Below, piece by piece: positions 1-30,315 of a DNA stretch of 32,000 nt. This stretch comes from Mycoplasmoides genitalium G37 (GTDB lineage Bacteria; Bacillota_I; Bacilli_A; Mycoplasmatales; Mycoplasmoidaceae). Each line of letters opens with the position of its first letter. Within the stretch, counting starts at the first letter, position 1. The notes under the pieces are model-generated. The model worked only from the letters and a program-made list of their open reading frames with translations, was not told the origin of the DNA and ran no database searches. The position numbers and the translations under genes were made by a program. The DNA lies in NCBI RefSeq assembly GCF_000027325.1, contig NC_000908.2:450001-482000 (forward strand), in the 5' to 3' direction.

Positions 1-722
<722 letters not shown>

Positions 723-733
723 TCTGCGTACTT

Positions 734-1048
734 TCAACGCACTTTAGCTGCAGTTTCTTTGATCGTTTTGCTTGGACTGTAGCGCACTAATGGTTTTGGT
801 GGGATATGTCTAATCTCACCTGTTTGCATATCCTTCTGATAACGTGCATTTCTAATAGTAATCCTTAATTTACCTAAATTTTCAGGTAATATACAAACAC
901 TTCTACTTACCAATTCATTTAGTAACAATGTGTTAAGGTATTTAAAGATTTCCTTAATTTTTTTTTCTTTTATACCAGTAGCAACTGCAATTATTTTATT
1001 GATTTCACTACGAGAAAGTGGCTTACTTGTATTTGATGTTTTTTCCAT
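734..1048 (-). CDS. HU/IHF-family DNA-binding protein (104 aa)
   Basis: Intact track ORF. The sequence has the pattern of the HU beta-arm (...LGKLRITIRNARYQKDMQTGEIRHIPPKPLVRYSPSKTIKE) after an N-terminal helical part (LSRSEINKIIAVATGIKEKKIKEIFKYL). Confidence 0.75.
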   Translation of the reverse strand: MEKTSNTSKPLSRSEINKIIAVATGIKEKKIKEIFKYLNTLLLNELVSRSVCILPENLGKLRITIRNARYQKDMQTGEIRHIPPKPLVRYSPSKTIKETAAKVR

Positions 1049-1196
1049 ATAATTATTTTTTAAAACTTTATTAGCTCTGTTATTGCTAAAAACAAAAGAG
1101 AAACAATTTAACGCATTCTATTTTATTATTGATTCAACAATTAAATTAAAACACTTATAAAGTAAATTTTTAGACAATTATTTCTATTCTTAAGAC

Positions 1197-1610
1197 ATGG
1201 AACAAAACAATATTAAAGAACAACTTATTTCTTTCTTTAATCAAGCATGTTCTACCCACCAAGAAAGACTTGATTTTATCTGTTCTACAAGAGAAAGTGA
1301 TACTTTTTCTAGTGTTGATGTACCACTTGAACCCATTAAAAATATTATTGAAATAACTAAAGATGAAAATCAACAAATTGAAATTACAAAAATAGCTGTT
1401 AATAACATTAAAACATTATCTTCTGTTGGTGCAACCGGTCAGTATATGGCATCTTTCTTTTCAACGAATAGTGAGCCAGCTATAATATTTTGCGTCATTT
1501 ATTTTTTATATCACTTTGGTTTTTTAAAAGATAACAATAAAAAACAAATAATAAAAAAGGCTTATGAAACTATTGCTGATAACATTGCTGACTATTTAAA
1601 TGAAAATTAG
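1197..1610 (+). CDS. Hypothetical protein (137 aa) with one hydrophobic segment (AIIFCVIYFLYHFGFL)
   Basis: Intact ORF with an in-frame TAA two codons upstream of the ATG. It fills the gap between the HU-like gene and the clpB 3' end. I recognise no motif. Confidence 0.5.
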   Translation: MEQNNIKEQLISFFNQACSTHQERLDFICSTRESDTFSSVDVPLEPIKNIIEITKDENQQIEITKIAVNNIKTLSSVGATGQYMASFFSTNSEPAIIFCVIYFLYHFGFLKDNNKKQIIKKAYETIADNIADYLNEN

Positions 1611-1612
1611 GT

Positions 1613-3757
1613 TTAAGACTTATTATTTTGTGTAATGGTAATATTGTCTTTAACAACTGCAATGTTGTATCCAACACCTTTTTTTATCTTTCCCTGAAGG
1701 ATATATTTAGCTATTAAAGTTGCAACACTATGATCAATAAAGCGCTTAATTGGTCTTGCACCAAACTGTTGATCAAAACTACTTTTATAGATAAACTCTG
1801 TTAGATTTGAATCAAAATTAAAAAATAAATTTTGTTTATTCAAGCGTTTTGAAAGTTGTGCCAACAAGCTGTTGATTATCGATAAAACTGTATCTTTCTC
1901 AAGAACATTGAAAAATACTATCTCATCAATACGATTTATAAATTCAGGACGGAAATGTTTCTTTAGACTTTGAATGGCCAAATCTTTTTTTCCTTCTAAA
2001 AGAAAATTTGAACCTAGGTTAGAAGTCATAATTATCAAAGTATTTTTGAAATTAACAACCCTTCCTTGTGAATCTTTTAAAGTACCATCATCTAAAACTT
2101 GTAATAAAACATTAGTTACATCAGGATGTGCCTTTTCAATTTCATCAAATAACAAGACGCTATAAGGTTTTCTTCTAACCGCTTCAGTTAGCAAACCTGA
2201 TTGTTCATAACCTATGTACCCTGGGGGTGCACCAATTAATTTAGCTACTGAATGTTTTTCCATATATTCACTCATATCAAAACGAATCAGAGCTTTTTCA
2301 TTGTCAAAAAGAACTTCTGCTAATGATTTGGCAAGTTCAGTTTTACCAACACCAGTAGAACCTAAAAAGATGAAAGAACCAATAGGTTTGTTTGGGTCAT
2401 TTATATTTACTCTACCTCTAATTACAGTGTTAACAACAGCATCGATGGCTTCATCTTGTCCTTTAACTCTTTTTTTGATTTCATCACCTAAGTGCAAAAG
2501 TTTATCCTTTTCACTTTCTAATAGTTTTTTAAGTGGAATTCCTGTTGTTTGTGAAATAACTTCAGCAATTTCATTTTCAGAAACTTCAGTTTTAAATAAA
2601 TCGTGCTTAGAAGTTGCATATTTTTGTTGTGCACTTTCCAGTTCTTTTTTAAGTCTTGGGATATCAGAGTACAGAATTTTAGATGCACTTTCATAATTTC
2701 CTTCACTTTGGTATGTCTCTAGTTTGGTTTGAAATTCTTCAATCTCTTTTTTGAGCTTATTAATGTTTTCAAAATCAGCCTTTTCCTTTTTTCATTCATT
2801 TATAAGTGAATCACGCTTTTGTTTAAGAGCATCTAATTGTTTTTTTAGTTTCTCTAAATATTCTTTCTTTGATTGTTTGTTATCATTTTCCTTATCTTGT
2901 TTAAGAGCTGCATACTCTGTCTCAAGATTGATTATTTCACGTTTAAGACTATCTATTGCAACTGGTTCAGATGACATTTCTGTTTTGATCTTAGCAGCAG
3001 CCTCATCAATAAGATCAATGGCTTTATCAGGTAAATTACGTTCATTAATATAACGAGTTGACATTTCAACAGCAGCTACTAAAGCACTATCAAAAATAGT
3101 GATGTTATGAAAGAGTTCTCAACGTGTTTTTAAACCACGCATAATTGTTAGTGCCTCTTGACTACTAGGCTCGTTAATAAGAATTTTTTGAAATCTACGT
3201 TCTAAAGCGCCATCTTTTTCAATGTATTCCCGGTATTCTTTTAGAGTAGTAGCGCCAATTACTTTTATTTCTCCTCGAGCTAGCATCGGCTTTAATATAT
3301 TGGCAATATCCATTGCACCACTGCTAGAATTACGTCCTAATCCAACTATTTGGTGAATTTCATCAATAAAAAGAATAATCCTGCCATTTGATTCTTTTAC
3401 TTGCTTAAGAATGGTATTAATTCTTTTTTCAAATTCACCTTGGAATTTAGTGCCAGCAATTAATCCAGAAAGAGATAGTTCATAAATTTCTACATCCCTT
3501 AAATTTAAAGGTACATCATTACTAACAACTCTTCTAACAAAACCTTCTACTATTGCGGTTTTACCAACTCCAGGTTCACCAATTAAAACAGGATTGTTTT
3601 TGCTTTTACGACTTAATATCTCAATTAAACGACGAATTTCGTTATCTCTTCCAATAATAGGATCGACCTTATTTTTTAATACTTCATCGTTAATATTACG
3701 ACCAATTTCTTGCAAAAAATTACGATTTTCACCAGCAGGTGTGAAATTAATATTCAT
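1613..3757 (-). CDS. clpB: ClpB-type AAA+ disaggregase (714 aa), short form without the N-terminal domain
   Basis: Track fragments 1613..2497, 2792..3064 and 3119..3757 are all in one phase. I read the junctions 2498-2791 and 3065-3118 codon by codon; the only interruptions are TGA at 2792-2794 and 3119-3121. There are two Walker A sites (GEPGVGKTA and [12 protein letters not shown]) and a coiled-coil middle domain (...[19 protein letters not shown]...). The protein starts about 30 residues before the [16 protein letters not shown] motif, so the N-domain of about 140 aa found in longer ClpBs is absent. Confidence 0.95.
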
Positions 3758-6326: not shown

Positions 6327-6752
6327 ATGGAAACTATCAGAGAAACACTTTCTTCTATACAAAGAAGCAATTTTTTATTAAATGAAAGCGCACAAATTCT
6401 CAATACGTGTGTAAACAAGAACACATTGCTTGACGATAAGCTGCGCAATTCGATTAATTTTGCACTTAGCATCATTAAGCTAGCAGACTTTTGTCTAAAG
6501 GATGATACTGAAAAAATTAATCAATTCTTAGGTAAAACATATGATTTACCATGAGAGTTTCAATTTAACCAAAAAGACAAGCATATAGAATGCACTGTCA
6601 AAGACAATTTTGGTCGTGAGAAACTAATAAATTTGATTTTTCAAATTGGTGATGCTATTGAAACTTATCATACTACTTTAATAAGATTCAAAATTCCCAA
6701 GCATTGTTTGAATGCAAGGGATCAAATCAAAAAAATAATGGAGGGCAAATAA
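6327..6752 (+). CDS. Hypothetical protein (141 aa) ending 2 nt before the ruvA start
   Basis: Track ORF 6327..6554 continues through a single TGA (6552-6554) to the TAA at 6750-6752. I read every codon and found no TAA or TAG. The translation is METIRETLSSIQRSNFLLNESAQILNTC...DLPWEFQFNQKDKHIECTVKDNFGREKLINLIFQIGDAIETYH...MEGK. I recognise no motif. Confidence 0.55.
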
Positions 6753-6754
6753 AA

Positions 6755-7372
6755 ATGATTACATCTATCTTTGGAAAAGTTACTTTTGTAGGCAAAAGAA
6801 AAATAATTGTTGAGCACAACTGGATTTCATATTGATTTAATACAAAAGAAAACCATAAATTTGAAAAAAATTTGGAAAAAAATAAGCAAATTTTTTGTCA
6901 TATTATTAAAAAAATTGTCGCTAACCAAATTATAGAAGAGGCTTTTGCCTTTAATACTCTAGAAGAAAAAGAGTGGTTCTGTAGATTAATAGAACTCAAT
7001 GGTATTGGTAGTAAAACTGCACTTAATTTGCTCAATAATGACCTTGAGGAAATTAAACAATACATTCTGGAAAATAACTACAGTGCATTATGTGGTATTA
7101 ACGGTGTAAATAACAAAATAGCTCGTGCACTTTTATCACTTGAAATATTTGAAAAATCTGAAAATAATAAAAATATTAAAGGAGTTCAAGTTGCTGATGG
7201 TTATGATGAATTGTTTGAAACACTAAAGTCACTTGGTTACAAACAACAAGAAATTCAGGATGCACTAAAAATGATAGAAGTAAAACCTGATTTTGATATA
7301 AGTCAGTTAGTTGCAGAAGTAATTAAATTAATGTCTTTTAAGAATAATGAAATTACAAATAAAACCGCCTAA
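6755..7372 (+). CDS. ruvA: Holliday junction helicase subunit RuvA (205 aa)
   Basis: The ATG at 6755 is in phase with track ORF 6872..7372, which begins at an internal TTG; there is one TGA between them. The N-terminus MITSIFGKVTFVGKRKIIVE is the typical RuvA OB-domain start. The HhH region is LIELNGIGSKTALNLL ... INGVNNKIARALL, and there is a C-terminal domain III (LKSLGYKQQEIQDALKMI). Confidence 0.9.
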
Positions 7373-8270
7373 TACCTTTGATGAATTTGTAGGAAAACAA
7401 GAAATAATTAGTCAAATTCAATTAAGTATTAAAGCATCTAAATTAAATAAAACACAACTAGATCATATCTTGTTATATGGCCCACCTGGTGTGGGTAAAA
7501 CTACTTTAGCCAGATTAATAGCAAATGAATTGAAAACAAAGTTGCAAATTATTCAAGGTGGACATTTACAAAAACCAAGCGATTTCTTAAACGCAATTTC
7601 ACTCATTAAAAAAGGTGATGTTCTTTTTATAGATGAGATCCATGCCGTAGCACCTAATGTCATGGAACTAATGTATCCAGTTATGGATGTGTTCAAAATA
7701 CAAGTATTAATTGGCAAGGATTTTAATTCCAAGATAGTTGAAATGAAGGTAAATCCTTTTACTCTAATTGGTGCAACTACACAACTTGGTAAAATCATCA
7801 ATCCTTTAGAAGATAGATTTGGCGTTATCTTAAACATTAACTATTATTCAAATGCTGAAATTGAAAAGATGGTAAGTATCTATGGAAAGCAAATGAAGTT
7901 AGAGCTAAATTCAAATGAAATTTCAGCTATCACTGAACATAGTAAACAAACACCAAGAATTGCAATTAGAATAGTTAGAAGAATATTTGAACAAAAAATT
8001 GTTAATAAAAAAATAGACCTTGAGGGTTTGTTTAAGAATTTAATGATTTATAAAAATGGTCTGCAAAGTATTGATGTCCAATATCTTGAGGTTTTAAATC
8101 GCCAAAATGAACCACAAGGAATTAAGTCAATTAGTTCCATGTTAGGTATAGACAGACACACTATAGAAAATAAAATTGAACCTTTTTTGTTGCGTGAAAA
8201 TATGATTCAAAAAACCAAAAAAGGCAGGATTATTACAAATAGCGGAAGAGAATATTTAGTTAACTTTTAA
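7347..8270 (+). CDS. ruvB: Holliday junction helicase subunit RuvB (307 aa)
   Basis: Intact ORF with Walker A LYGPPGVGKTTLA, Walker B VLFIDEIH, sensor GATTQLGKI and TPRIAIRIVRR. It overlaps the ruvA 3' end by 26 nt. Confidence 0.95.
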   Translation: MKLQIKPPNTFDEFVGKQEIISQIQLSIKASKLNKTQLDHILLYGPPGVGKTTLARLIANELKTKLQIIQGGHLQKPSDFLNAISLIKKGDVLFIDEIHAVAPNVMELMYPVMDVFKIQVLIGKDFNSKIVEMKVNPFTLIGATTQLGKIINPLEDRFGVILNINYYSNAEIEKMVSIYGKQMKLELNSNEISAITEHSKQTPRIAIRIVRRIFEQKIVNKKIDLEGLFKNLMIYKNGLQSIDVQYLEVLNRQNEPQGIKSISSMLGIDRHTIENKIEPFLLRENMIQKTKKGRIITNSGREYLVNF

Positions 8271-9504
8271 GCTTATTAGCTCTTTTAATAATTTCAAAAC
8301 CAAAACTTTCATTAATATCAAAAATTAATTTATCAAGTGAAGATTCTTCGCTTAATTTGCTAATTGATTTTGGTATGAATTGATAAAATAAAGATTTTTT
8401 CTGTCCTTCATCTGTATCTATCTTTTTTAAATCAAAAAAACTAATACCTATTAATCGAACGTTCTTTTCAGTATTAATTAATAGTCTGTTGAATAATCGT
8501 TTTGTTATTGACAGTAGTTTTCTATAATCGTTTGAATATTTTTTCATTTTATTTGAATGAGAATTAACAATAAAATCATTGCTTTTCAATTGCACAACTA
8601 TCCCTTTACACACTTGTGAAGAGAGTTGTAATCTTATAAAGAGCTGATCAAATATTTGCGTTAACTTTTTATTTAACTGATTGTTTGAATAATTTAAATC
8701 TTCTAACGTTTCACTGACTGCAAAAGAGCGAGACTTAACCTGATTGTTATTATCTGTATATCATTTGCCTAGTGAAACTGCTTTTAAAGATTCTCAAAAA
8801 TTACCAAATACTTTTTTTAAAAGCGAAGCATCTTCACAAACTGCTAGATCATTTATTTTGTAAAAATTATTTTTAAAAACTAAATCAATATGTTTTTCTC
8901 CTATCCCTGGAATTTCAGTAATTGGTAGTGGTCAAAGTTTTTTTTTAATATCCTTAACTGAACAACTTTTAATTCCAAATGGTTTTGCTTGATTTGAAAA
9001 AATCTTAGCAATTAAAAAATGATCTGAGATGCCAATTGAAATTTTGATTCTCAAGTTTTGAAAAACAAAATTTTTTATTTTTTTCGCTATTAAAAATGCC
9101 TTTTTAAATGAAATGTTTTGAAAACAAGCAACCCCTTCATCAACAGAAAGAACATCAATTTTTAATGAAAAAGTGCTTTCAATAACTGAAAAAATACGTT
9201 TAGAATGTTTTCTGTAATTACGAAAATTAGAATGTGCAAAAATAGCATTTGGACATAGTTCTAATGCTTTTAAAATAGACATTCCAGATCTAATTCCATA
9301 ACTACGAGCAACATAGTTACAAGTTGAAACTACACTTCTTGAAAAGCGATTACCAACTATTAAGGGTTGATTAACTAATTCTGGATTTTCTAATTCTTCA
9401 ACAGATGCAAAAAAAGCATCAAAATCAAAATAAAGAAAAATTAAATTTTTATCAATTAAATATTCTGGTTCAAAATATGTAAAGGTGTTAATCATATTTA
9501 TCAA
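8260..9504 (-). CDS. Y-family (DinB/UmuC/ImpB-type) translesion DNA polymerase (about 411-414 aa)
   Basis: Fragments 8260..8613 and 8932..9504 are in phase. I read junction 8614-8931 and found only TGA, at 8932, 8794 and 8761. The translation has LYFDFDAFFASVEE (catalytic Asp motif), LSVDEGV, and PITEIPGIGEKHIDL (HhH). The true start may be the fourth codon, the second ATG of MINMIN... Confidence 0.85.
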
Positions 9505-11689: not shown

Positions 11690-12617
11690 AATTGTTTTCT
11701 TTGGTACTTCAACGCTTTCAAAAAAATGTTTAGAACAACTTTTTTACGATAATGATTTTGAAATTTGTGCTGTTGTAACTCAGCCAGACAAAATTAATCA
11801 TCGTAACAATAAAATAGTACCTTCTGATGTTAAGTCTTTTTGTTTGGAAAAAAACATAACTTTTTTTCAACCAAAACAAAGCATAAGCATAAAAGCTGAT
11901 CTAGAAAAATTAAAAGCTGATATTGGTATTTGCGTTTCATTTGGTCAGTATCTTCATCAAGATATTATTGATCTTTTTCCAAATAAAGTAATTAACTTAC
12001 ATCCTTCTAAGTTACCACTACTTCGTGGTGGTGCACCATTACATTGAACCATTATTAATGGTTTTAAAAAATCTGCATTGAGTGTAATTCAATTGGTTAA
12101 AAAAATGGATGCAGGTCCGATTTGAAAACAACAAGATTTTTTAGTTAATAATGACTGAAATACTGGTGATTTATCCATATATGTAGAAGAACATTCACCC
12201 TCTTTTTTAATTGAATGTACTAAAGAAATTCTCAATAAAAAAGGGAAATGATTTGAACAAATAGGTGAACCTACTTTTGGATTAAACATAAGAAAAGAAC
12301 AAGAACATCTTGATCTTAATCAGATTTACAAGAGTTTTTTAAACTGAGTAAAAGGTTTAGCTCCCAAACCTGGTGGTTGGTTAAGCTTTGAAGGAAAAAA
12401 CATCAAAATTTTCAAAGCTAAATATGTTAGTAAAAGTAATTACAAACATCAATTAGGAGAGATAGTTAATATATCTCGAAAAGGAATTAATATTGCTTTA
12501 AAAAGCAATGAAATTATTTCAATTGAAAAAATTCAAATACCTGGAAAAAGGGTGATGGAAGTAAGTGAAATAATAAACGGAAAACATCCTTTTGTTGTTG
12601 GTAAATGTTTCAAATAG
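11682..12617 (+). CDS. fmt: Methionyl-tRNA formyltransferase (311 aa)
   Basis: Track ORF 11682..12047 extends through five TGA to the TAG at 12615-12617; I read every codon. The translation has MFKIVFFGTS..., VVTQPDK and NLHPSKLPLLRGGAPLHW (the formyltransferase active-site motif). Confidence 0.92.
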
Positions 12618-12618
12618 A

Positions 12619-14622
12619 ATGATTACAAAGAGTTTTTTCCTTAAAAATTTTGATCGCTCTAAAGAATTAATTCCTCTTTCATATAACGATGTTTTTAGCG
12701 CTGTTAATCAGTTTCTGAAAAGCTATACTGACGTTAATGATATTGATATTATTGAAGAAAATTTGATTGAAGATCCAGTTTTTGAACTTGATGTTTTAGA
12801 ACTTTTAAACGAGGATCCAATGCTATTATTGGACAGTAAAAATCCCCGTGTTCAAGAAGCTAAAATTATTGCTAATAAAGCAAAAAAAAATATTAAAGAT
12901 TATTTTAATCTTCCCATTTTTTTTGATACAGATAGTTTAGATAAAAATGTTTCTGTTTATCAAAAAGCTGAGCTTACTGAAAAGAAAATTCAAGAAATAA
13001 TAACATCAAAAAAATCAGCTATTATTTTTAAACCTATTTTTGAAATAGAAGATTGCTTAATTCAACCAGATGCTATTATTGTTCATGAAAAAGGACTTTG
13101 TGAATTTGTTGTTATAAAAGCTACAACCAATACAAAAAGAAAATATTTTTTGGAAATAATTTATGACTTTGTGTTATTTAAAAAAATAGGTAAGTATAAA
13201 CTTTTAAACTATTATTTTTGTACTGTTAAATACGAATTACAAAATAAAAATAATGTTTCTTTCTTTTTAAATACTGAAATAAAAACATCAAAAAACAGTT
13301 TTAGTTTAAGTTCAAAAGAAAAAGATTATTTTAAGAATAAACCTTTTAATCACCCTGAAAAAATTGCTTACATACACAAAAAAAAGAGCAATGGAGTTAA
13401 TGGTTTTTTGATTGTAAAACTCATTGATAACCTTATTAAAAACAATATAGTTGATTTAAACAAAATAAGTGATTTTGTTACTAAAGAAATTGACAGTAAA
13501 AGTGTTCGTAATATTCAACCACTTATTAAAAATGCGGCTAAAATACAAATTAATTTTTGAGATCAAATACAAGATATAAAAAAATATCAAGAACTCAAAA
13601 TAAATCAAATTGTTTTTAATTACAGTGAAAATTTTGATTCTTTTTGGAGTAACTATTTATTAAGAAATTTAATTAAATTAGTTTTTGCTCATAAATACAA
13701 TGAAATTTTTAAATTATCTGGTAAATTAGCTAATTGAAGTCAATTAACATATGCATATAAAGAAAATAAATCAATAACTATAAATCAACTGCTTCACGAA
13801 TTAAATCAGAAAAAAAGCAAGGCTAATTTTAATAACTCAACTAATAAAATAAGTTTTTTTCTTGAAGCGTGAAATAGTGAAAAAGGTTTTGCAATTGGCA
13901 ATAAATTTAAAAATACTTGAAATAAACTTAAAAAAAAGAAAGTTTATTTTGATTTTGAAACAATTAGTTCATCAATCAGAATCATAAATAATTCATTACC
14001 ATTTAGTCAAATTGTTACCCAATGCTCATTAATAGTTGATAAAAATGAAATAGATGATAAAAGAAAACTTAATTGTGAAAATCTAATTTTTGATCCCTTA
14101 TTTATTAGCGTTAATGACTTTAAAAAAGTAATTGATTCACTCTATCAAAACAATTGCAGTGATTATAGTTTTGTTGTTTTTAATAAATCTTTTGAAAAAA
14201 ACAGATTATTGGAAATGGCTACATTGATTAATGAACAAATATATAAAGAAAAAGTAAAAGCTATTGTTGACAATCTTTTTGACTTAGCTGATATTTTTAC
14301 TATTGAAAATAACTGTTTGGCTTTCAAACAGCTAAACGGTTTTTCCTCTATCAAAAAGGTTTTAACTATTATAGATGAAAGCTTTTTAAAGGCAAGTAAA
14401 TCAATTGGTTATCAAAATTTAAAAATCCAAAAAGGTGATGTAGCACAAGAAGTTGCTTTATCGCGTTTTCTAAATTGCTTAAATAAAAATGAATGAAATC
14501 AAGTAGCTTTTGAATTAAAAAAATATTGTGAAAATGATGTCAGAGCGATGATTTCAATTGTTTTATTTATCCAAGATTTAATCAAAAAAAATGATCTATT
14601 TACTTTTTATTCAGAAAATTAG
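12619..14622 (+). CDS. Large hypothetical protein (667 aa), DUF2779-like: N-terminal PD-(D/E)xK-like region plus a C-terminal DEDDy (DnaQ-like) 3'-5' exonuclease-like region
   Basis: The ATG at 12619 is preferred; the track's 12592 start is a TTG inside fmt. The ORF is in phase with track ORFs 12592..13560 and 14209..14496. I read all codons; there are five TGA and the TAG is at 14620-14622. Motifs seen: ITKSFFLKNF at the N-terminus; IQPDAIIVHEKGLCEFVVIKATT; VYFDFETISS (Exo I, DxE); VVFNKSFEKNRL (Exo II-like); KKYCENDVRAM (Exo III, Yx3D). Confidence 0.75.
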
Positions 14623-18151: not shown

Positions 18152-19144
18152 CTATTGAATTAAATATTCAAACCAAGGTACTATTTTACTCTTGAATTGC
18201 ATTAATGAATAATTTGTTAAAATGGGAAACTTGCTCGTTTCTAGTTTAGGAAAAACTAATTCATAAGCGTGAAGTGCTTGATGCTTATATTTATTATTAC
18301 GATTTTTAAATTGAATCAAGCTGTATTTTTTATCACCAACTAGTTGATTTGAAAATAAATTTAAACACGCACGAATTTGGTGAGTCCTACCACTAATTAA
18401 TCTAATTGTTATTAAAGACATATCTTTTTGAGCTATGTATGAAGAATTTTCAAAAAAAGTGCTTATCTTTTTTGCTTCTGGAAAAGGTTTTCATTTTACT
18501 GTTACAATGCCATTATTGTTATCTTTTTTTCAATAAGCAGTTTGTAAGCCAAGATGGTTAAATTGACCAAAAACTAAGCCTTTATATCTTTTGGTTAAAT
18601 GGTTATTTTTAAAAACTTTGTTCAATTCTTTTAAAGCTTTGTTTGTTTTAGCACCAATAACAATTCCAGAAGTATTACGATCAATACGATGTGCAAACTG
18701 GGGATAAAAGTTAAGTTTATTACTGTCAAATTGTCTATATCCACAGTGTTTTAAAAGCATATTTGATAAATTAATAATGCTATGTTTTTTATCAGGTTGG
18801 CAAACTATTCCAGTTGGTTTGTCAACTACAATAATATTTTCATCCTCAAATATAATTTTTAGCTTATCTTTTACCAAATCTAGAGATAAATAGTCATTAT
18901 TAGTTTGTAAATAGGGATTTATATCAAAAAGAAAAGCTATCTCATCTTTAGTTTTTAATCTTGTGTTGACCTGTGGTTTTGTTTTATTTAACAAAACCTT
19001 TCCTAAGCGTAAATACTTAAAAAAGTCACTTCTTTTAATTAAGGGAAGGATTTTTAAACAAAATTGGTCAATTCGTTGGTTTTCACTTTCTTTAGGAACT
19101 AAAAATTTATTAGCTATTCTCATTTTGTTTGGCAAGAAAATCAT
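18152..19144 (-). CDS. RluA-family pseudouridine synthase with an N-terminal S4-like domain (about 330 aa)
   Basis: Fragments 18152..18421 and 18530..19144 are in phase. I read the junction and found TGA at 18530 and 18491. The translation has HRIDRNTSGIVIGAKT (catalytic Asp motif), ...SGRTHQIRA..., and an S4-like N-terminus (RIDQFCLKILP...SDFFKYLRLGKVLLNK). The start could instead be the internal MRIANKF. Confidence 0.85.
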
Positions 19145-20084
19145 CCATTATCTGTACTAATTTCATAAATTGATTTTTTTCATCCAAAACAAAAGCAGCT
19201 GCATATTTATGTCCACCACCATTGAACATTTGTGCAAAGTTATTAATTGGAATATTACGTGAGCGAATGGAACCAATTCATTTTTTAATGGACTCGTTAA
19301 AGTAAACAGTAGTCCATATTTTTACTCCTTTTATGTTATTCAAAGCATGAACCATTGGTAAAGGAGAGACAACACCAAAATGTTTATATGCTCCTTTTTT
19401 AATCAATGCATAAGCTAACCCATTTTTAGTTATTTTGGCTTTGCTAAGTACATAGCTAAAGTACTTATGTTCTAGTAATGGCTTTAAATAAACTGCATCA
19501 TGAACCTTATTGCGGTTAAAACCAGTTTCCATCAATTTTGCTGTTAGGGCAAATGTTTGGGGTGTAGTAGTTGGACCTCAGAATCGCTGTGTATCAGTAA
19601 TTATTCCTGCATAAAGATATGATGCAATCTCATCATTTAATTTGTAACCCATCTGCAAAATTAAATAACCAATCATCTCAGCAGTTGCTGAAAAAGAAGA
19701 ATCAATTCATTCCATATCAGCAAATTTTTCAGTTCTAGGATGGTGATCTATCCTAACTGTCTCTTTTGCCAACTTATGTTTTTGAGTTAAAACTCTTTCT
19801 TGGTTGGAAGTATCAAAAATAATAGCTAAAGATTCTTTTACAAAATCATCATTTATGTCAGTTTGCTCAAAAGGAAAAAGTTCTCTACCGTCTGCATTAA
19901 TATTGTATGAACCCATAACATAAGCTTTTTTTTCACTGAAAAAAGTATTTAGGAAAGTTTTGAAAGCAAAAGCAGATCCAAATGCATCAAAGTCTGGGTT
20001 TACATGTACAAATAAACTGAACTTATCAAACTGTTTAACCTTTTTTGAAAAATTCTTAATGAATTGTGGATCGATACTAATCAT
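19110..20084 (-). CDS. nrnA: DHH/DHHA1 phosphoesterase, NrnA-like nanoRNase/pAp phosphatase (324 aa)
   Basis: Fragments 19707..20084 and 19278..19535 are in phase. I read both junctions and the tail and found TGA at 19707, 19578 and 19278; the TAA is at 19110-19112. The translation has HVNPDFDAFGSAFA, RIDHHPR (DHH) and NGGGHKYAAAF (the DHHA1 GGGH motif). The 3' end overlaps the next gene's start by 35 nt. Confidence 0.85.
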
Positions 20085-21234
20085 TGCTTAATTCACTTAC
20101 TCCCTTTTCAATTAAATCATTTAAAAAAATAAGCTCACTTTCAAGCTTTTCAACATTTATCAATTTAGCTTTCGTTGTAGGATTTTTGGGAGAAAACTCA
20201 CTACAAGTATCTAAATGTTGTTCAATAGAAATATCAAAAGTATTAAAAAATTTAGCTAATTCAATAATTTTATCTTTACTAAAGCCAATTAAGGGGCGAA
20301 CTATAAATGTATCTGGTGTTGCTGATTGAATAACTTTTAAATTTTCAATGGTTTGGGATGCAACTTGTCCCAAAACCTCACCTGTAACTAGACAATCATA
20401 CTTAAACATACTAGCAGCTTTATAAAAAACACGACGCATTAAAACGATACGATAAGATTCATTACTAATATGAATTAACTCTTTTTGAATTGCAGTGAAA
20501 TCAAAAACTAATAATTTACCACTACAAATCGTTTTATTAAAAGAAATTAAATTTGCTAACCTTGTGATTTTTTCAATTGTTTTTTGATTCTTATTTGGTT
20601 CATTAATAAAGGTGATAAAATCAATGTTAAAACCACGTTGCATTACAAGTGAAGCTGCAACTGGGCTATCAATTCCTCCTGAAAGTAAGACTAAAGCTTT
20701 ACCACTACTATAAACAGGTAATCCACCTTTACCTTTAAAACGTTCTGTAAAAACAAGAAAATGCTCCTTCAAAATCTCTATATTAGCTATTATTTCAGGG
20801 TTATTAATTACTCCTTTTAATTGGTATTTTTCAAATAGTTTAACTGCTAAATACTTCTTAAAATTACTTGAATTTTCAGCAAAATTTTTATCACGTCTCT
20901 TAACTTCTAATTTAAAGGAATTAAAATCTTTAAATAAATTAAAAAGAAGATCTAATAGTTTGTTTTCTTCCCTTACTATCTGTGATGCAAAAAAGAACAA
21001 ACTAATTCCAGGCAAAAAACTGAATAATTCTTGGAGAATCGCTCTTTGTTCTTTTTTAATATCAAAGACAACAATTCTATCAAATTCATAAACAATACTA
21101 TTGTTAATTTCCAGTTTTTTAAAAGCTTTTTTGATGTTAATTTTTAATTGTTTTGTGAAATAAGAACGGTTTTTTCCTTTTAAAACCAATTCACCATAAC
21201 GCGCAACTAATACATCTTCACTATTCAATTCCAT
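20077..21234 (-). CDS. thiI: tRNA 4-thiouridine synthase ThiI (385 aa)
   Basis: Intact ORF with a THUMP-like N-terminal half and the PP-loop LLSGGIDSPVAA. Confidence 0.9.
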   Translation of the reverse strand: MELNSEDVLVARYGELVLKGKNRSYFTKQLKINIKKAFKKLEINNSIVYEFDRIVVFDIKKEQRAILQELFSFLPGISLFFFASQIVREENKLLDLLFNLFKDFNSFKLEVKRRDKNFAENSSNFKKYLAVKLFEKYQLKGVINNPEIIANIEILKEHFLVFTERFKGKGGLPVYSSGKALVLLSGGIDSPVAASLVMQRGFNIDFITFINEPNKNQKTIEKITRLANLISFNKTICSGKLLVFDFTAIQKELIHISNESYRIVLMRRVFYKAASMFKYDCLVTGEVLGQVASQTIENLKVIQSATPDTFIVRPLIGFSKDKIIELAKFFNTFDISIEQHLDTCSEFSPKNPTTKAKLINVEKLESELIFLNDLIEKGVSELSND

Positions 21235-22066
21235 TTTCCTTTAATCATTGAATATCACTTTCTGTTAGTTTAGGACTTTTACCAGTTAATATGTAATTTT
21301 CATATCAAATTCTCGCCTTATCAACTAAAACACTAAATCCCTTATGATCTATCTTGATAGGAATTAACCTAATTTCTCTATTGCTAGCATTAAATTGTTC
21401 TGGTAAGACATAATCTTCTGGTTTCAAAAAGGCAATTGCAAAAAGTCCTTTATTTACATTGCGCAAATATAGATAAAGACCAATTTGACAATAATATAAA
21501 GTACTGATAATAATTTTTCCATTACTGTCAAATCAACTATCTTTTTTGCCATCTTTCTTTTTAACAATAGGCATACCATTTTCATCAAGAATCATCTTGA
21601 GATTTCCATTGATTTTTTTATAAATAAGACTATCGCAAGAAGTTGTTTTAATCTCTAACATAGGAAGATCATTTTGATAAGCTAATTCACCATTTTCATC
21701 AAGAGGTTCACCATCAGGTATCCCACCAAAAACACTATCATCCTTAAATAAATCAAATTGAACTTTTTTAGGATCATAAGAATGAAAATTAAAACCAGTT
21801 TTTAAATTGACATAATCACGTATTTTAGGTTCTATTATGTTTCCAGCTTTTGCCAGTGTTTCATCAAATTCATCTTCATAAATTTTGACCATATTAGCTC
21901 AAGTTTTAAATGATGACTCATATTCAGATAAACCTAAAACCTTGCCAAAGCGAGTACCGGTTATTTTTTTAAATAGAGCTTTATTTCTTAAAAAATACTG
22001 TTCTGATAGAACAATTTGATTATCAACTATATCAAAATCAGTTTTATATTGCTTTATAAATCCCAT
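21221..22066 (-). CDS. YqaJ/lambda-exonuclease-family PD-(D/E)xK nuclease homolog (281 aa)
   Basis: I extended track ORF 21533..21892 in both directions codon by codon. The ATG is at 22064-22066, TGA occur at 21899, 21533, 21305 and 21245, and the TAG is at 21221-21223. Motifs appear in the family order: KKITGTRFGKVLGLS, AGNIIEPKIRDY, GGIPDGE, LPMLEIKTTS (D...ExK) and YYCQIGLYLYL. Confidence 0.75.
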
Positions 22067-22891
22067 TTATTTCATCAACTGTTCACAAATTCCTTTTAAA
22101 ACAATTGATATTTCAGGATTATTAAATTCCTCATCATTATCTGGTTGTTTTTTGCTTAAAAATACAACACTTGCTAATTGATTAATGTTATTAATTGGAA
22201 CTTCTGTCACATTTAAATAATGAACATCTTTTAAAGAGCAATTCTTGCTTTTAACATATGTTTCTAAAGCACTAAACTTGGAATTTTTTGTGCTAGTAAA
22301 TAAAAAATTTTCGTTATAAAAATTGCTGTAATGAAACTTAGGCTGACCACTAGAAATATGTTCCATAAGTTGAAAGTCTAAATGATACTGAGGACTAAAT
22401 ACATAAATAGAACTAACATCCATTTCACTGAGATTTTTTAAGAAATTTTGGTACTTTAATGTTTGGTCAAATTCCGTTAATCAAATTAATTTGAATTGCT
22501 TATATTTTTCTAATGAAATAAAGTAATTAATTGTTGTATTAGGTTCCTCACTAATCTTGCTTTTTCCAATTGCAAAAACACCAGAATTAGTAATAATAGC
22601 ATGGTGTACAATAGTGTCTATACTAACAGAATCTAAAAAAGATTGATAGATAAATTCATTGGTTTTGCTAATTCATATAATCGCGCCTGATTCTGCAATT
22701 ATATCAACATCATCTAACGAGAGTAAATCAAGTAAATAAAGCACTGCTTGTTGTCAACAACTTGACATAAAAACAAGTTGATGGTTATTCGCTTGAATGA
22801 AATTAAAAAAGTTTTTTCATACTTCTAAATCCTTTGTAGTGTTAAAAAAATTTGCTGTATTAATATCTAAAACAACTATTTTTCTATCCAT
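22067..22891 (-). CDS. HAD-superfamily (Cof-like) protein with degenerate catalytic motifs (274 aa)
   Basis: I extended track ORF 22067..22423 upstream codon by codon to the ATG at 22889-22891, crossing TGA at 22481, 22673, 22754 and 22817. The N-terminus is MDRKIVVLDINTANFF, where Cof-type phosphatases have DxDGTLL. IIAESGAIIW resembles the Cof xxNGAxI segment. There is no clear GDxxND motif. Confidence 0.6.
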
Positions 22892-24578
22892 CTCTTCTAA
22901 CTCTTTTAACAAAATTATTAAAGCTAATTCTGGTGATTTTTTCACCTTTAAAACCACGGCATGTCAACTTCTCTAAATTCTCTATTTCTTTATCTCCAAC
23001 AATAAGTTGTAAAGGAATTTTTTCAATGATTGCTTGTCTAACTTTTTTAGCTAAGCGATCTTGATTATCATCTAAATTTACACGGATGTTTTCTTTTAGC
23101 AATTTGTTATAAAGTTTTTTTGCTGCCTTTAAATGCTTTTGGATATTAACAGGAATAATTACGGCTTGAACAGGTGCTAACCATAAAGGAAAATTACCAC
23201 TTGTTTTTTCAAGTAAAGCAGCAATAAACCTTTCATAAGTTCCAATAATTCCAACATGGATAATAACTGGTTTTTTTAGTGTATTTTTTTTATCTATATA
23301 AGTTAGATCAAATTTTTCTGGTAGTAAAAAATCTAGTTGAATGGTGGCAATAGTAATCATTTTTTTAAAGATTGTTTTGAACTGAAAATCAATTTTTGGT
23401 CCATAAAAAGCAGCAGCTCCTATCTCTTTTTGATATTGGATATTTAAATCTTTTAAAACATTCTCCATTTGGCTTTCAGATTCTCTTCATAAACCAGGAT
23501 TATCAATAAATTTTGATTGATTTTTAGGATCATGTAGAGAAAGATCTATCCTATCAAATATAAATCCAAATTTTTTATTAACTTTTTGAATTAAATTAAA
23601 TGCGTTTTTAATCTCACTTTTAATTTGATCTGCACGACAAAAAATGTGATTATCAAGTAAAGTCATGCACCTCACTCTTTCTAATCCTATTAATCCTCCA
23701 GAGGCTTCAAAACGATGCAAAATAGAATCTTCTGAAAAGCGCTGTGGCATTTTTTTATATGAATATCGTTTTTGTTTGAAAATCAGACAGTGATGAGGAC
23801 ATGTCATAGGACGAAGCATCATTGCTTGACTATCAAGTTTAATAGCAGGAAACATATCTTCCTTATAGTGCTGATAGTGGCCGCTAATTTTAAAAAGCTC
23901 TATGTTAGCTAATACAGGAGAACAAACAGTATTAAAACCAAACAATAGTTGCTGGTGATGCACAAAATTACCGATTATATTCCTTAGTGTTGTACCCTTT
24001 GCTAATCAAATAGGAAGACCTGCACCGATCAGTGGGTCAAAGCTAAATAACTCTAATTGTTTACCTAAAGATCTGTGATCCTTCTTCAAGCGTTCTTCAT
24101 TTTCTTTTATTAATTGTTCTAATTCTTTTTTTGATTGAGCAAAAATGCCATTAATCCTCTGAAGTTGTAATTGTGAAGGATCTCCCAAAAAATAATTTAC
24201 GCTTACATTTAATAGCTTAATAAAACTTTTTTTAATAAAAGTTAAAGTTAAATCTTCTATTCAAAAATGTTTATTTTCAAAAAAGGTGATTTTAAATTTG
24301 TTTAAGTTGCTTTTTTTTAATAAGTTTTTTGTAAACTGATCATTTTCAAAAAAACTTAATGCTTCATCTAAAGAAACAAATTTTTGAGAAATCCCTTCTA
24401 GTTTACTAGAAAGAGAGTTTAAATCAGATTCTATTTTTGCAAACTGTTTTGTAGAAAAATTCTCATTTATATAAAAATCTAAATAAAATTCATCTCCATT
24501 AAAACCATGTTCACCAAACTGAACATTAGCATATTTGCATTTTAACCATATTTGTAATAAAAGAACTCCTGCAAGCAT
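22884..24578 (-). CDS. thrS: Threonyl-tRNA synthetase (564 aa), lacking the TGS domain and with a degenerate editing domain
   Basis: Fragments 22884..23468, 23487..23963, 24006..24188 and 24261..24578 are all in one phase, and the total length equals 565 codons. The class II core includes RMTCPHHCLIF, HRFEASGGLIGLERVR and FYGPKIDF, followed by an anticodon-binding C-terminus. Confidence 0.95.
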
Positions 24579-24892
24579 TAAGATTCTTGATAATCAATCA
24601 TTACTTTTGAATTTGGTTTCATAATTTTGACAACTTCGATTGTTGTTTTTCAAATTCCACTGCGTTTTTCTAGGTAAGTGCGCAGAATACCTTCGATGCT
24701 AATTGTTTTAAATTTTTGAGTATATGCTTCAAGTTCAAATGCTAATTGACCATTTGCATAAAAAACAAAAAAATCAGTAAAACTTCGTTCACCAAACAAA
24801 CGTTTCTGCTTAATAGTTACTAAAAATCCTGTCTTTTTGTGGCTTCACTTTGTGCTTTCTATTTCACCTTCCAAAAAAACGCAATTTAACAT
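24578..24892 (-). CDS. Small SSB-like OB-fold protein (104 aa); absent from the ORF track
   Basis: The ATG is at 24890-24892, there are two in-frame TGA, and the TAA at 24578-24580 shares 1 nt with the thrS ATG. The translation is MLNCVFLEGEIESTKWSHKKTGFLVTIKQKRLFGERSFTDFFVFYANGQLAFELEAYTQKFKTISIEGILRTYLEKRSGIWKTTIEVVKIMKPNSKVMIDYQES. The pattern N-x-V-x-L-x-G ... DFF ... G-x-LA ... ISIEGxLRTY ... TIEVV matches the layout of the bacterial SSB/PriB OB fold. There is no acidic C-terminal tail. Confidence 0.6.
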
Positions 24893-30239: not shown

Positions 30240-30315
30240 TGGCGCATCGGGAGGGATTTGAACCCACGACAACACGCTTAGAAGGCGTGTACTCTATCCA
30301 CTGAGCTACCGACGC
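30240..30315 (-). tRNA. tRNA-Arg (anticodon UCU), 76 nt with encoded CCA
   Basis: The reverse complement is GCGTCGGTAGCTCAGTGGATAGAGTACACGCCTTCTAAGCGTGTTGTCGTGGGTTCAAATCCCTCCCGATGCGCCA. It folds as a cloverleaf by hand: a 7-bp acceptor stem with one G-U pair, a D arm GCTC/GAGT, an anticodon stem CACGC/GCGTG, a loop CT-TCT-AA, and a T arm GTGGG-TTCAAAT-CCCTC with one U-U mismatch. Confidence 0.93.

Follow-up and report, generated by a model that had tools for sequence, protein, structure and literature searches.

The window analysed here comprises 32,000 nucleotides of the Mycoplasmoides genitalium G37 chromosome (contig NC_000908.2, positions 450,001 to 482,000 of the forward strand), and the gene under study, MG_373 (yqaJ), lies on its minus strand at 21221..22066; all coordinates below are those of the window. 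Under translation table 4 this interval is a single open reading frame (ORF) of 281 amino acids (aa), and under translation table 11 the frame is split at four TGA codons, such breaks in the ORFs of the window under the standard bacterial code being the mark of a Mollicute genome. Reading TGA as tryptophan is correct for MG_373 because the four codons sit on conserved tryptophan columns in an alignment of 48 orthologs, where W56 and W254 are invariant and the conservation of W178 and W274 is 90% or higher. The product shares 73% identity with MPN551 of M. pneumoniae, with which it is paired in a published ortholog table (Lluch-Senar et al. 2015 supplement), and the ORF is MG_373, the ortholog of MPN551. 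The gene and the features within it are the following:

21221..22066, minus strand: MG_373, gene of a predicted YqaJ-type exonuclease (ORF; Pfam, NCBIfam, PHROG, AlphaFold2 (AF2) model, Foldseek)
21932..21964, minus strand: N-terminal motif ITGTRFGKVLG, aa 35-45, matching ITAS32-35 of lambda Exo by motif
21647..21715, minus strand: PD-(D/E)XK core, with D118 in GGIPDGE and E138-x-K140 in MLEIKTT (conservation and motif match to lambda Exo)
21521..21625, minus strand: MPN551-family insertion between ExK and YxxQ, aa 148-182, beta-rich, with conserved P166, K169, K174 and W178
21464..21496, minus strand: YxxQ motif YYCQIGLYLYL, aa 191-201, with Y191 and Q194 invariant, matching Q157 of lambda Exo
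21899-21901, 21533-21535, 21305-21307 and 21245-21247, minus strand: TGA codons read as W56, W178, W254 and W274, respectively

The family of the product was assigned by profile searches. The match to Pfam PF09588 (YqaJ) reached 27.7 bits against a gathering score of 22 (E=3.7e-6, residues 33-144), and the match to NCBIfam NF045868 ("MPN551 family DNA-binding protein"), a full-length equivalog, reached 412.4 bits against a cutoff of 250, with residues 1-279 placed on positions 1-281 of the 284 positions of the model. The score for NF045870 (MAGa7180 family putative nuclease) was 119.6 bits, below the cutoff of 225, with whole-length homology at E=1.4e-34, and the score for TIGR03033, the phage-related lambda-exonuclease subfamily, was 28.7 bits, below the cutoff of 68.05. 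The best phage-family match was PHROG 434, the RecE-like recombination exonuclease (E=6.5e-16, residues 33-271).

Sequence searches of the PDB, performed with the single protein and with the profile of the 48 sequences, gave no exonuclease homolog, the few matches below E=1 being unrelated, so the tie of MG_373 to solved exonucleases comes only from fold comparison. The AF2 model built from the 48-sequence alignment had a pLDDT of 95.2 and a pTM of 0.90, and its best Foldseek matches in the PDB were LHK-Exo (3syy), lambda Exo (6m9k, 1avq and 3sm4) and the H. somnus phage exonuclease (3k93), with E values of 2e-5 to 3e-4, a probability of 1.00 and target-normalised TM-scores of 0.51-0.67 for the cited chains. 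The YqaJ/Cas4-like protein R354 of mimivirus was also among the best structural matches, and in BFVD, which holds predicted viral structures, the top matches were YqaJ recombinase proteins of phages and giant viruses, down to E=4.6e-9.

The catalytic residues are fully conserved. K34, I35, T36, G37 and R39 are invariant in the 48 orthologs, and E79, D118, E138, K140, Y191 and Q194 are invariant in the 48 MPN551-family proteins as well as when the MAGa7180 family is added. In a comparison with lambda Exo, the sequence of which came from the phage lambda genome record, ITAS32-35 corresponds to ITGT35-38, E85 to E79, D119 to D118, E129-x-K131 to E138-x-K140 and Q157 to Q194 of MG_373, a correspondence resting on motif order and fold matches, not on a residue-level structural alignment; the profile of the 48-sequence alignment gave a meaningless alignment when run against the single lambda Exo sequence. 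Lambda Exo and LHK-Exo (PF09588) thus share the fold of MG_373 and its set of catalytic motifs, which come in an identical order, but have only 12-15% identity to it. MG_373 further carries an N-terminal extension of ~30 aa and a helical one at the C-terminus, together with two insertions. The two insertions (aa 121-128 and aa 148-182) are missing from the MAGa7180 family proteins, and that at aa 148-182 could be an additional element for contact with DNA or with a partner.

On this evidence from sequence profiles and the predicted structure, MG_373 can be assigned with high confidence as a lambda-Exo/YqaJ-type exonuclease, its activity being predicted. Much of what the sequence-only reading, an earlier model-made reading of the letters and their ORFs, had put forward was borne out by these results, namely the 281-aa ORF rejoined across the TGA codons and the five motif strings, which are all present at residues 35, 75, 114, 136 and 191. 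The Pfam YqaJ search that it had proposed was passed, and the D/E/K triad, whose substitution in orthologs it had named as evidence to the contrary, is invariant in the 48 orthologs and in the sister family. The identification itself is already known, being present in curated annotation and in the literature on a probable sister-family enzyme; MPN551 was named yqaJ with a Pfam YqaJ domain in the Lluch-Senar et al. 2015 supplement, and also in Yus et al. 2019 and the 2025 essentiality map. Between MG_373 and its ortholog MPN551 (NF045868; yqaJ of M. pneumoniae), which has the same operon position upstream of thiI, there is no substantive difference.

MG_373 is embedded in a co-directional block on the minus strand, with the order argS, MPN555-family chaperone, MG_376, thrS, MPN552-family HAD-like gene, yqaJ, thiI, nrnA-like gene, rluA-family gene and onward. 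The immediate neighbours are the following:

22067..22891, minus strand: MG_374, MPN552-family HAD-IIB-like gene abutting the yqaJ start (NF045755, 375 bits; weak Hydrolase_3 match)
21221-21234, minus strand: 14-nt overlap of the yqaJ stop and the thiI start, ATGGAATTGAATAG, read from the sequence; translational coupling
20077..21234, minus strand: thiI, tRNA 4-thiouridine synthase, downstream neighbour (TIGR00342, 515 bits)
19110..20084, minus strand: nrnA-like DHH/DHHA1 nanoRNase/pAp phosphatase, second gene downstream (NF053633, E=9.5e-59, 198.9 bits, below the 350-bit cutoff)

Loci of yqaJ were scanned with one genome per species, and all of the 80 loci returned came from Mycoplasmoidaceae (Mycoplasmoides, Ureaplasma, Malacoplasma and related metagenome-assembled genomes). 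The order yqaJ-thiI-nrnA was found in 62 of them, and in related loci the stop of yqaJ nearly always overlaps the thiI start or lies a few nucleotides from it. The DNA polymerase III alpha gene dnaE then follows in 44 loci, with a gene for a polA-type 5'-3' exonuclease after it in 33. The complete block of yqaJ, thiI, nrnA, dnaE and the polA-type exonuclease gene occurs in many Ureaplasma and other Mycoplasmoidaceae (among loci L003-L081, e.g., L062 13329-16259 and L046 16119-17000); this extension, which places yqaJ by replication and repair genes, is absent from the M. genitalium window. The upstream neighbours of yqaJ vary across loci, and those scanned with profiles are not annealases.

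No annealase, integrase or phage structural gene was found with NCBIfam, Pfam and PHROGs among the window neighbours and uncharacterised ORFs, where the only phage-family match was a generic HU-like DNA-binding match (PHROGs). As to a two-component phage recombinase of the Red, RecET or YqaJK kind, no RecT, Red-beta, Erf or Sak gene lies beside MG_373, whereas lambda Exo has a Red-beta-type partner gene. Across the 80 related loci, no annealase was found in the ten profile-scanned clusters taken from the top 30 recurrent neighbour clusters. As a positive control for annealase detection, the viral contig L096, found with the family profile, carries a PHROG-434 exonuclease, a RecT-like annealase and a single-stranded DNA-binding protein (SSB) in this order (900-3003, plus strand).

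In an exhaustive profile search of 1.84 billion representative proteins, only 481 relatives were found at E<=1e-3, and those beyond the MPN551 family were the MAGa7180 family and PHROG 434 (phage RecE-like) proteins of roughly 350 aa. The phage RecE-like exonucleases of PHROG 434, which belong to exo-RecT-SSB modules such as B. subtilis YqaJ/YqaK, are the nearest relatives of MG_373 outside the mycoplasmas. The phage members lie beside a RecT-like annealase and an SSB, as in L096, whereas the mycoplasma gene has neither adjacent and sits in a housekeeping operon. The G+C content of the window is ~27-31%, and that of the yqaJ region (0.27-0.28) equals its surroundings. A local prophage or mobile-element origin was rejected on synteny (62/80), GC composition and the lack of phage genes in the window, and the data support MG_373 as a vertically inherited chromosomal core gene of Mycoplasmoidaceae, not a prophage remnant. 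On the simplest reading, mycoplasmas acquired an exonuclease of phage type at an early stage of their evolution and retained it but not its annealase. The absence of annealase, integrase and phage genes and the direct neighbourhood (14-nt thiI overlap, abutting HAD-like gene) had been described correctly in the sequence-only reading, and its view of MG_373 as a domesticated chromosomal gene is supported by the fixed gene order and the lack of phage genes nearby.

The other genes of the block were also considered. The stop codon of MG_374 (22067-22069) lies directly before the yqaJ start. The N-terminal motif of MG_374 is VLDINT, in which Asn takes the place of the second Asp of HAD DxDxT, and this MPN552-family protein may be a pseudo-enzyme with an essential role. 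MG_376 (24578-24892, minus strand), which shares the transcription unit of yqaJ and lies three genes upstream of it, matches PDB 2HQL, the "MG376 homolog" (MPN554), at E=1.9e-47 and has a weak SSB-like profile match; it is listed as essential in both species. Phage exonuclease modules often carry an SSB, as seen in L096. As conserved partners of yqaJ, MG_376 (SSB-like) and MG_374 (HAD-like) were rejected, having no homolog within 10 kb in the other 80 loci, and the MPN552-family gene neighbours yqaJ in the M. genitalium/M. pneumoniae lineage alone.

For M. pneumoniae, the 2025 essentiality map gives MPN556 to MPN550 as a single transcription unit. A scan for promoter and terminator consensus sequences gave fewer promoter-like sites than in shuffled sequence and no minus-strand terminator, which is consistent with a long co-directional gene block and otherwise uninformative. 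The window also holds recU (126-722, plus strand), ruvA and ruvB (6590-8270, plus strand) and a DinB-like polymerase gene (8260-9504, minus strand), of which recU was confirmed by an NCBIfam profile, while for the others the translation was the sole basis of the name. Much of the organism's small complement of recombination and repair genes thus lies no more than 20 kb from yqaJ, in transcription units of their own. The only RNA gene of the window is a tRNA-Arg (anticodon TCT) at 30240-30315 on the minus strand (Rfam, ARAGORN).

For the activity, the closest published evidence comes from M. bovis, where the purified YqaJ-domain protein MbovP701 (WP_013456606.1) degrades double-stranded DNA (dsDNA) in the 5'-3' direction in a Mg/Mn-dependent manner, and in vitro also degrades single-stranded DNA, RNA and plasmid DNA (Hao et al. 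2024). In the same study, a transposon mutant of MbovP701 grew more slowly in rich medium, no signal peptide was found, and a trimer was modelled only; lambda Exo itself is a ring-shaped trimer through which DNA is threaded. The authors stated that YqaJ exonucleases normally act with an annealase, and their hypothesis was that a partner still to be identified exists and that the enzyme takes part in homologous-recombination repair, which a 2025 review repeats. MAGa7180-family proteins occur across the Hominis-group mycoplasmas, and from its taxonomy MbovP701 very probably belongs to this family. The MAGa7180 family has whole-length homology to MG_373, the same invariant E, D, ExK and YxxQ residues and a similar size, and its genes are likewise chromosomal and without an annealase. 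It is a sister family of the MPN551 family, as the score of MG_373 below the cutoff indicates, and it differs in lacking the two insertions and in gene context, with a DUF2779 gene downstream in the MAGa7180 family versus thiI-nrnA in the MPN551 family.

A member of the DUF2779 family, a second candidate for the processing of DNA ends and a possible functional partner of YqaJ, is also encoded in the window:

12592..14622, plus strand: MG_366, UU173-family/DUF2779 protein with a Cas4-like N-terminal domain and a DEDDy 3'-5' exonuclease domain (NCBIfam, Pfam, motifs, literature)

Majorek et al. 2014 described the UU173/DUF2779 family as DEDD-type 3'-5' exonucleases fused to a Cas4-like PD-(D/E)XK domain, and a 2026 paper also reads the quasi-essential JCVI-syn3.0 member as two nuclease domains. 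For MG_366 itself this two-nuclease reading rests on Pfam, motifs and literature, as a fold search with the whole-protein model (pLDDT 82.8) gave no significant PDB match (best E 0.067). The DEDDy motifs of DUF2779 are conserved throughout the alignment. At the Cas4-like D...ExK motif, most Mycoplasmoidaceae have E-T-K while M. genitalium and M. pneumoniae have V-I-K, and Hominis-group DUF2779 proteins are also without the Glu of this ExK motif.

A DUF2779 gene lies directly 3' of the MAGa7180-family yqaJ in 9 of 13 loci (L082, L085, L086, L087, L089, L090, L091, L093 and L094), mostly with overlapping start and stop, this being a small statistic from Hominis-group genomes and metagenome contigs, 8 of the loci having come from the metagenome scan. 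The regions concerned are 7001-10085 in L082, 6001-8581 in L085, 6001-8818 in L086 and 6001-8752 in L087, and the hosts include M. crocodyli, M. mobile, M. iguanae and Metamycoplasma buccale, with recU next to the pair in the latter. The same linkage was rejected for the MPN551 family, where DUF2779 occurs within 10 kb of yqaJ in 1 of 80 loci, so the pairing is confined to the sister family; in the window, MG_366 and MG_373 are 6.6 kb apart, on opposite strands and in different operons. No mention of the yqaJ-DUF2779 pairing was found in the searchable literature, and it is the one lead here for which no description was found. Of the claim that MG_373 is an orphan with no partner, the part concerning an adjacent annealase stood, while "no partner" may be too strong, as DUF2779 adjoins the sister-family yqaJ.

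The recombination background of the organism bears on what such an enzyme would do. RecBCD, AddAB, RecJ and RecFOR are absent from these mycoplasmas (Estevao et al. 2013, PMC3720892), and Torres-Puig et al. 2015 reported the same absence for RecD, RecO and RecR, which confirmed the lack of RecBCD/AddAB-type resection enzymes that the sequence-only reading had put forward. A 5'-3' dsDNA exonuclease is what a cell without such enzymes would need for 3' tails. AddAB/RecBCD and RecJ, by analogy, would have the same outcome as that proposed for MG_373, a 3' single-stranded tail for RecA. The nuclease domains of AddB and RecB belong to the PD-(D/E)XK superfamily too. Unlike AddAB/RecBCD, MG_373 is a single-domain protein of 281 aa that has no helicase domain (no helicase family was matched in Pfam or NCBIfam), no Chi recognition and no RecA-loading module.

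In the mechanism proposed, MG_373 would act in the cytoplasm as a metal-dependent exonuclease from the lambda-Exo/YqaJ branch of the PD-(D/E)XK superfamily. Having bound a dsDNA end, it would degrade the strand with the 5' terminus, moving 5'-3'. The catalytic metal would be held by D118, E138 and K140, with E79 and Q194 supporting the active site, and the reaction would either leave a 3' single-stranded tail or degrade the fragment completely. Without an annealase, the tail would pass to the host SSB and RecA for the repair of breaks and forks and for MgPa-type recombination, and the same activity would clear broken or linear DNA. We infer the activity, the polarity and the oligomeric state of MG_373 and, above all, its cellular role.

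The fitness data were compared with this mechanism. MPN551 was placed in class F and then E (Lluch-Senar et al. 2015) and in class F2 (2025 essentiality map), and its insertion frequency drops from 0.75 to 0.03 over passages; since the downstream thiI is non-essential, this effect is not polar. As relayed second-hand in the Lluch-Senar et al. 2015 supplement, MG_373 is listed as essential in M. genitalium and MG_366 as non-essential, and the essentiality tables give ruvA, ruvB and pcrA as non-essential in both species and recA as F in M. pneumoniae and NE in M. genitalium. DNA binding by MPN551 was seen in a single pull-down experiment (Yus et al. 2019), and no enzymology of any MPN551-family member was found in the searchable literature.

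Taken together, a domesticated 5'-3' exonuclease that makes tails for RecA and clears broken DNA is probably the best description of MG_373, while resection for RecA as its main role is possible but somewhat doubtful. Several points weigh against giving RecA this place. The loss of yqaJ costs more than the loss of ruvA, ruvB or pcrA, and more than that of recA in M. genitalium; because the essentiality tables are at odds with a role linked to RecA alone, this suggests that YqaJ has at least one RecA-independent job, such as fork or break processing in replication or the clearance of linear DNA. MG_373 is also unmentioned in the searchable literature, including the papers on the sigma-20 (MG428) recombination regulon, so a RecA-feeding role is without support from co-regulation. 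The broad substrates of MbovP701 in vitro, by analogy, blur the substrate specificity that a YqaJ enzyme may have, and the assignment of MbovP701 to the MAGa7180 family was made from taxonomy and not by comparing its sequence. In addition, resection could fall to MG_366, either in place of YqaJ or alongside it.

In an unlikely alternative, YqaJ and DUF2779 (MG_366) would form a two-part nuclease that processes DNA ends with both polarities, a helicase-less stand-in for AddAB/RecBCD, with YqaJ supplying the PD-(D/E)XK activity that the N-terminal domain of DUF2779 has lost in some lineages. The direct adjacency in 9 of 13 sister-family loci and the presence of both genes in the window fit such a set, as do the motif pattern of DUF2779 (PD...ExK kept in most Mycoplasmoidaceae, V-I-K in M. 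genitalium/M. pneumoniae, Glu lost in the Hominis group), the quasi-essential JCVI-syn3.0 member with its two nuclease domains, and an M. bovis transposon library that yielded both a yqaJ mutant and a slow-growing DUF2779 mutant. However, the linkage in 1 of 80 MPN551-family loci, the separate operons and opposite strands in the window, the distant M. bovis locus numbers (0701 and 0804), the non-essential listing of MG_366 against the essential one of MG_373 and the lack of a significant fold match for the MG_366 model all argue the other way. As a matter of speculation, the motif pattern is compatible with YqaJ supplying PD-(D/E)XK activity to a two-protein end-processing set. In its evolutionary form the idea is decidedly unlikely: Mollicutes would have replaced RecBCD/AddAB with a helicase-less YqaJ and DUF2779 set, ancestrally an overlapping pair, retained in most Hominis-group species and split in M. 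genitalium/M. pneumoniae, and with the Glu of the Cas4-like site of DUF2779 lost, YqaJ would be the only remaining PD-(D/E)XK resection activity. If true, this sole role would explain why YqaJ is near-essential while RecA, RuvAB and RecU are not.

The fitness data also bear on an improbable view, that MG_373 is mainly degradative and clears linear, broken or foreign DNA (perhaps RNA) for nucleotide recycling, with NrnA finishing the short oligonucleotides and no substrates being made for RecA. The growth defect of the M. bovis mutant in rich medium and the fitness class of MPN551 would fit metabolism better than a dispensable recombination pathway, the link to nrnA is kept in 62 of 80 loci, and mycoplasmas are without de novo nucleotide synthesis (Hao et al. 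2024). Intracellular linear DNA is, however, scarce as a nutrient, the broad substrates in vitro may reflect a contaminating or relaxed activity, and the dnaE and polA-type exonuclease genes in many loci point to replication and repair, not salvage; host DNA would be out of reach of the M. bovis YqaJ because it has no signal peptide. That MG_373 acts on RNA, in the processing or turnover of tRNA or rRNA, is very improbable, even though it shares an operon with argS, thrS and thiI near nrnA and rluA (the MPN556-MPN550 unit of M. pneumoniae) and MbovP701 degraded RNA in vitro. All characterised lambda-Exo/YqaJ/RecE members found by fold or profile are DNA exonucleases, MPN551 was recovered as a DNA-binding protein, and mycoplasma operons commonly mix unrelated functions. 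It is extremely improbable that MG_373 only binds DNA and has lost its catalytic activity, or that it is left over from a decaying prophage, as the NCBI family name of only "DNA-binding protein" and the restriction of the Pfam match to residues 33-144 might suggest, since the catalytic residues are invariant across two families, the predicted fold is complete and confident with a PHROG match spanning 33-271, and the gene has a family-wide order, no phage genes nearby and a fitness cost on disruption.

Recombination between adhesin genes and silent repeats lets M. genitalium and M. pneumoniae escape immunity, and both species carry it out without any of the textbook enzymes that prepare ends for RecA (RecBCD, AddAB, RecJ/RecQ, RecFOR). 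The context added here is that of a family-wide core gene tied to thiI-nrnA and frequently joined by dnaE and a polA-type exonuclease gene, with a sister family paired with a DUF2779 double nuclease whose Cas4-like motif is degenerate in M. genitalium. MG_373 is the most obvious candidate for this end preparation, its loss has a measurable fitness cost, and it is therefore a sensible target for experiments.

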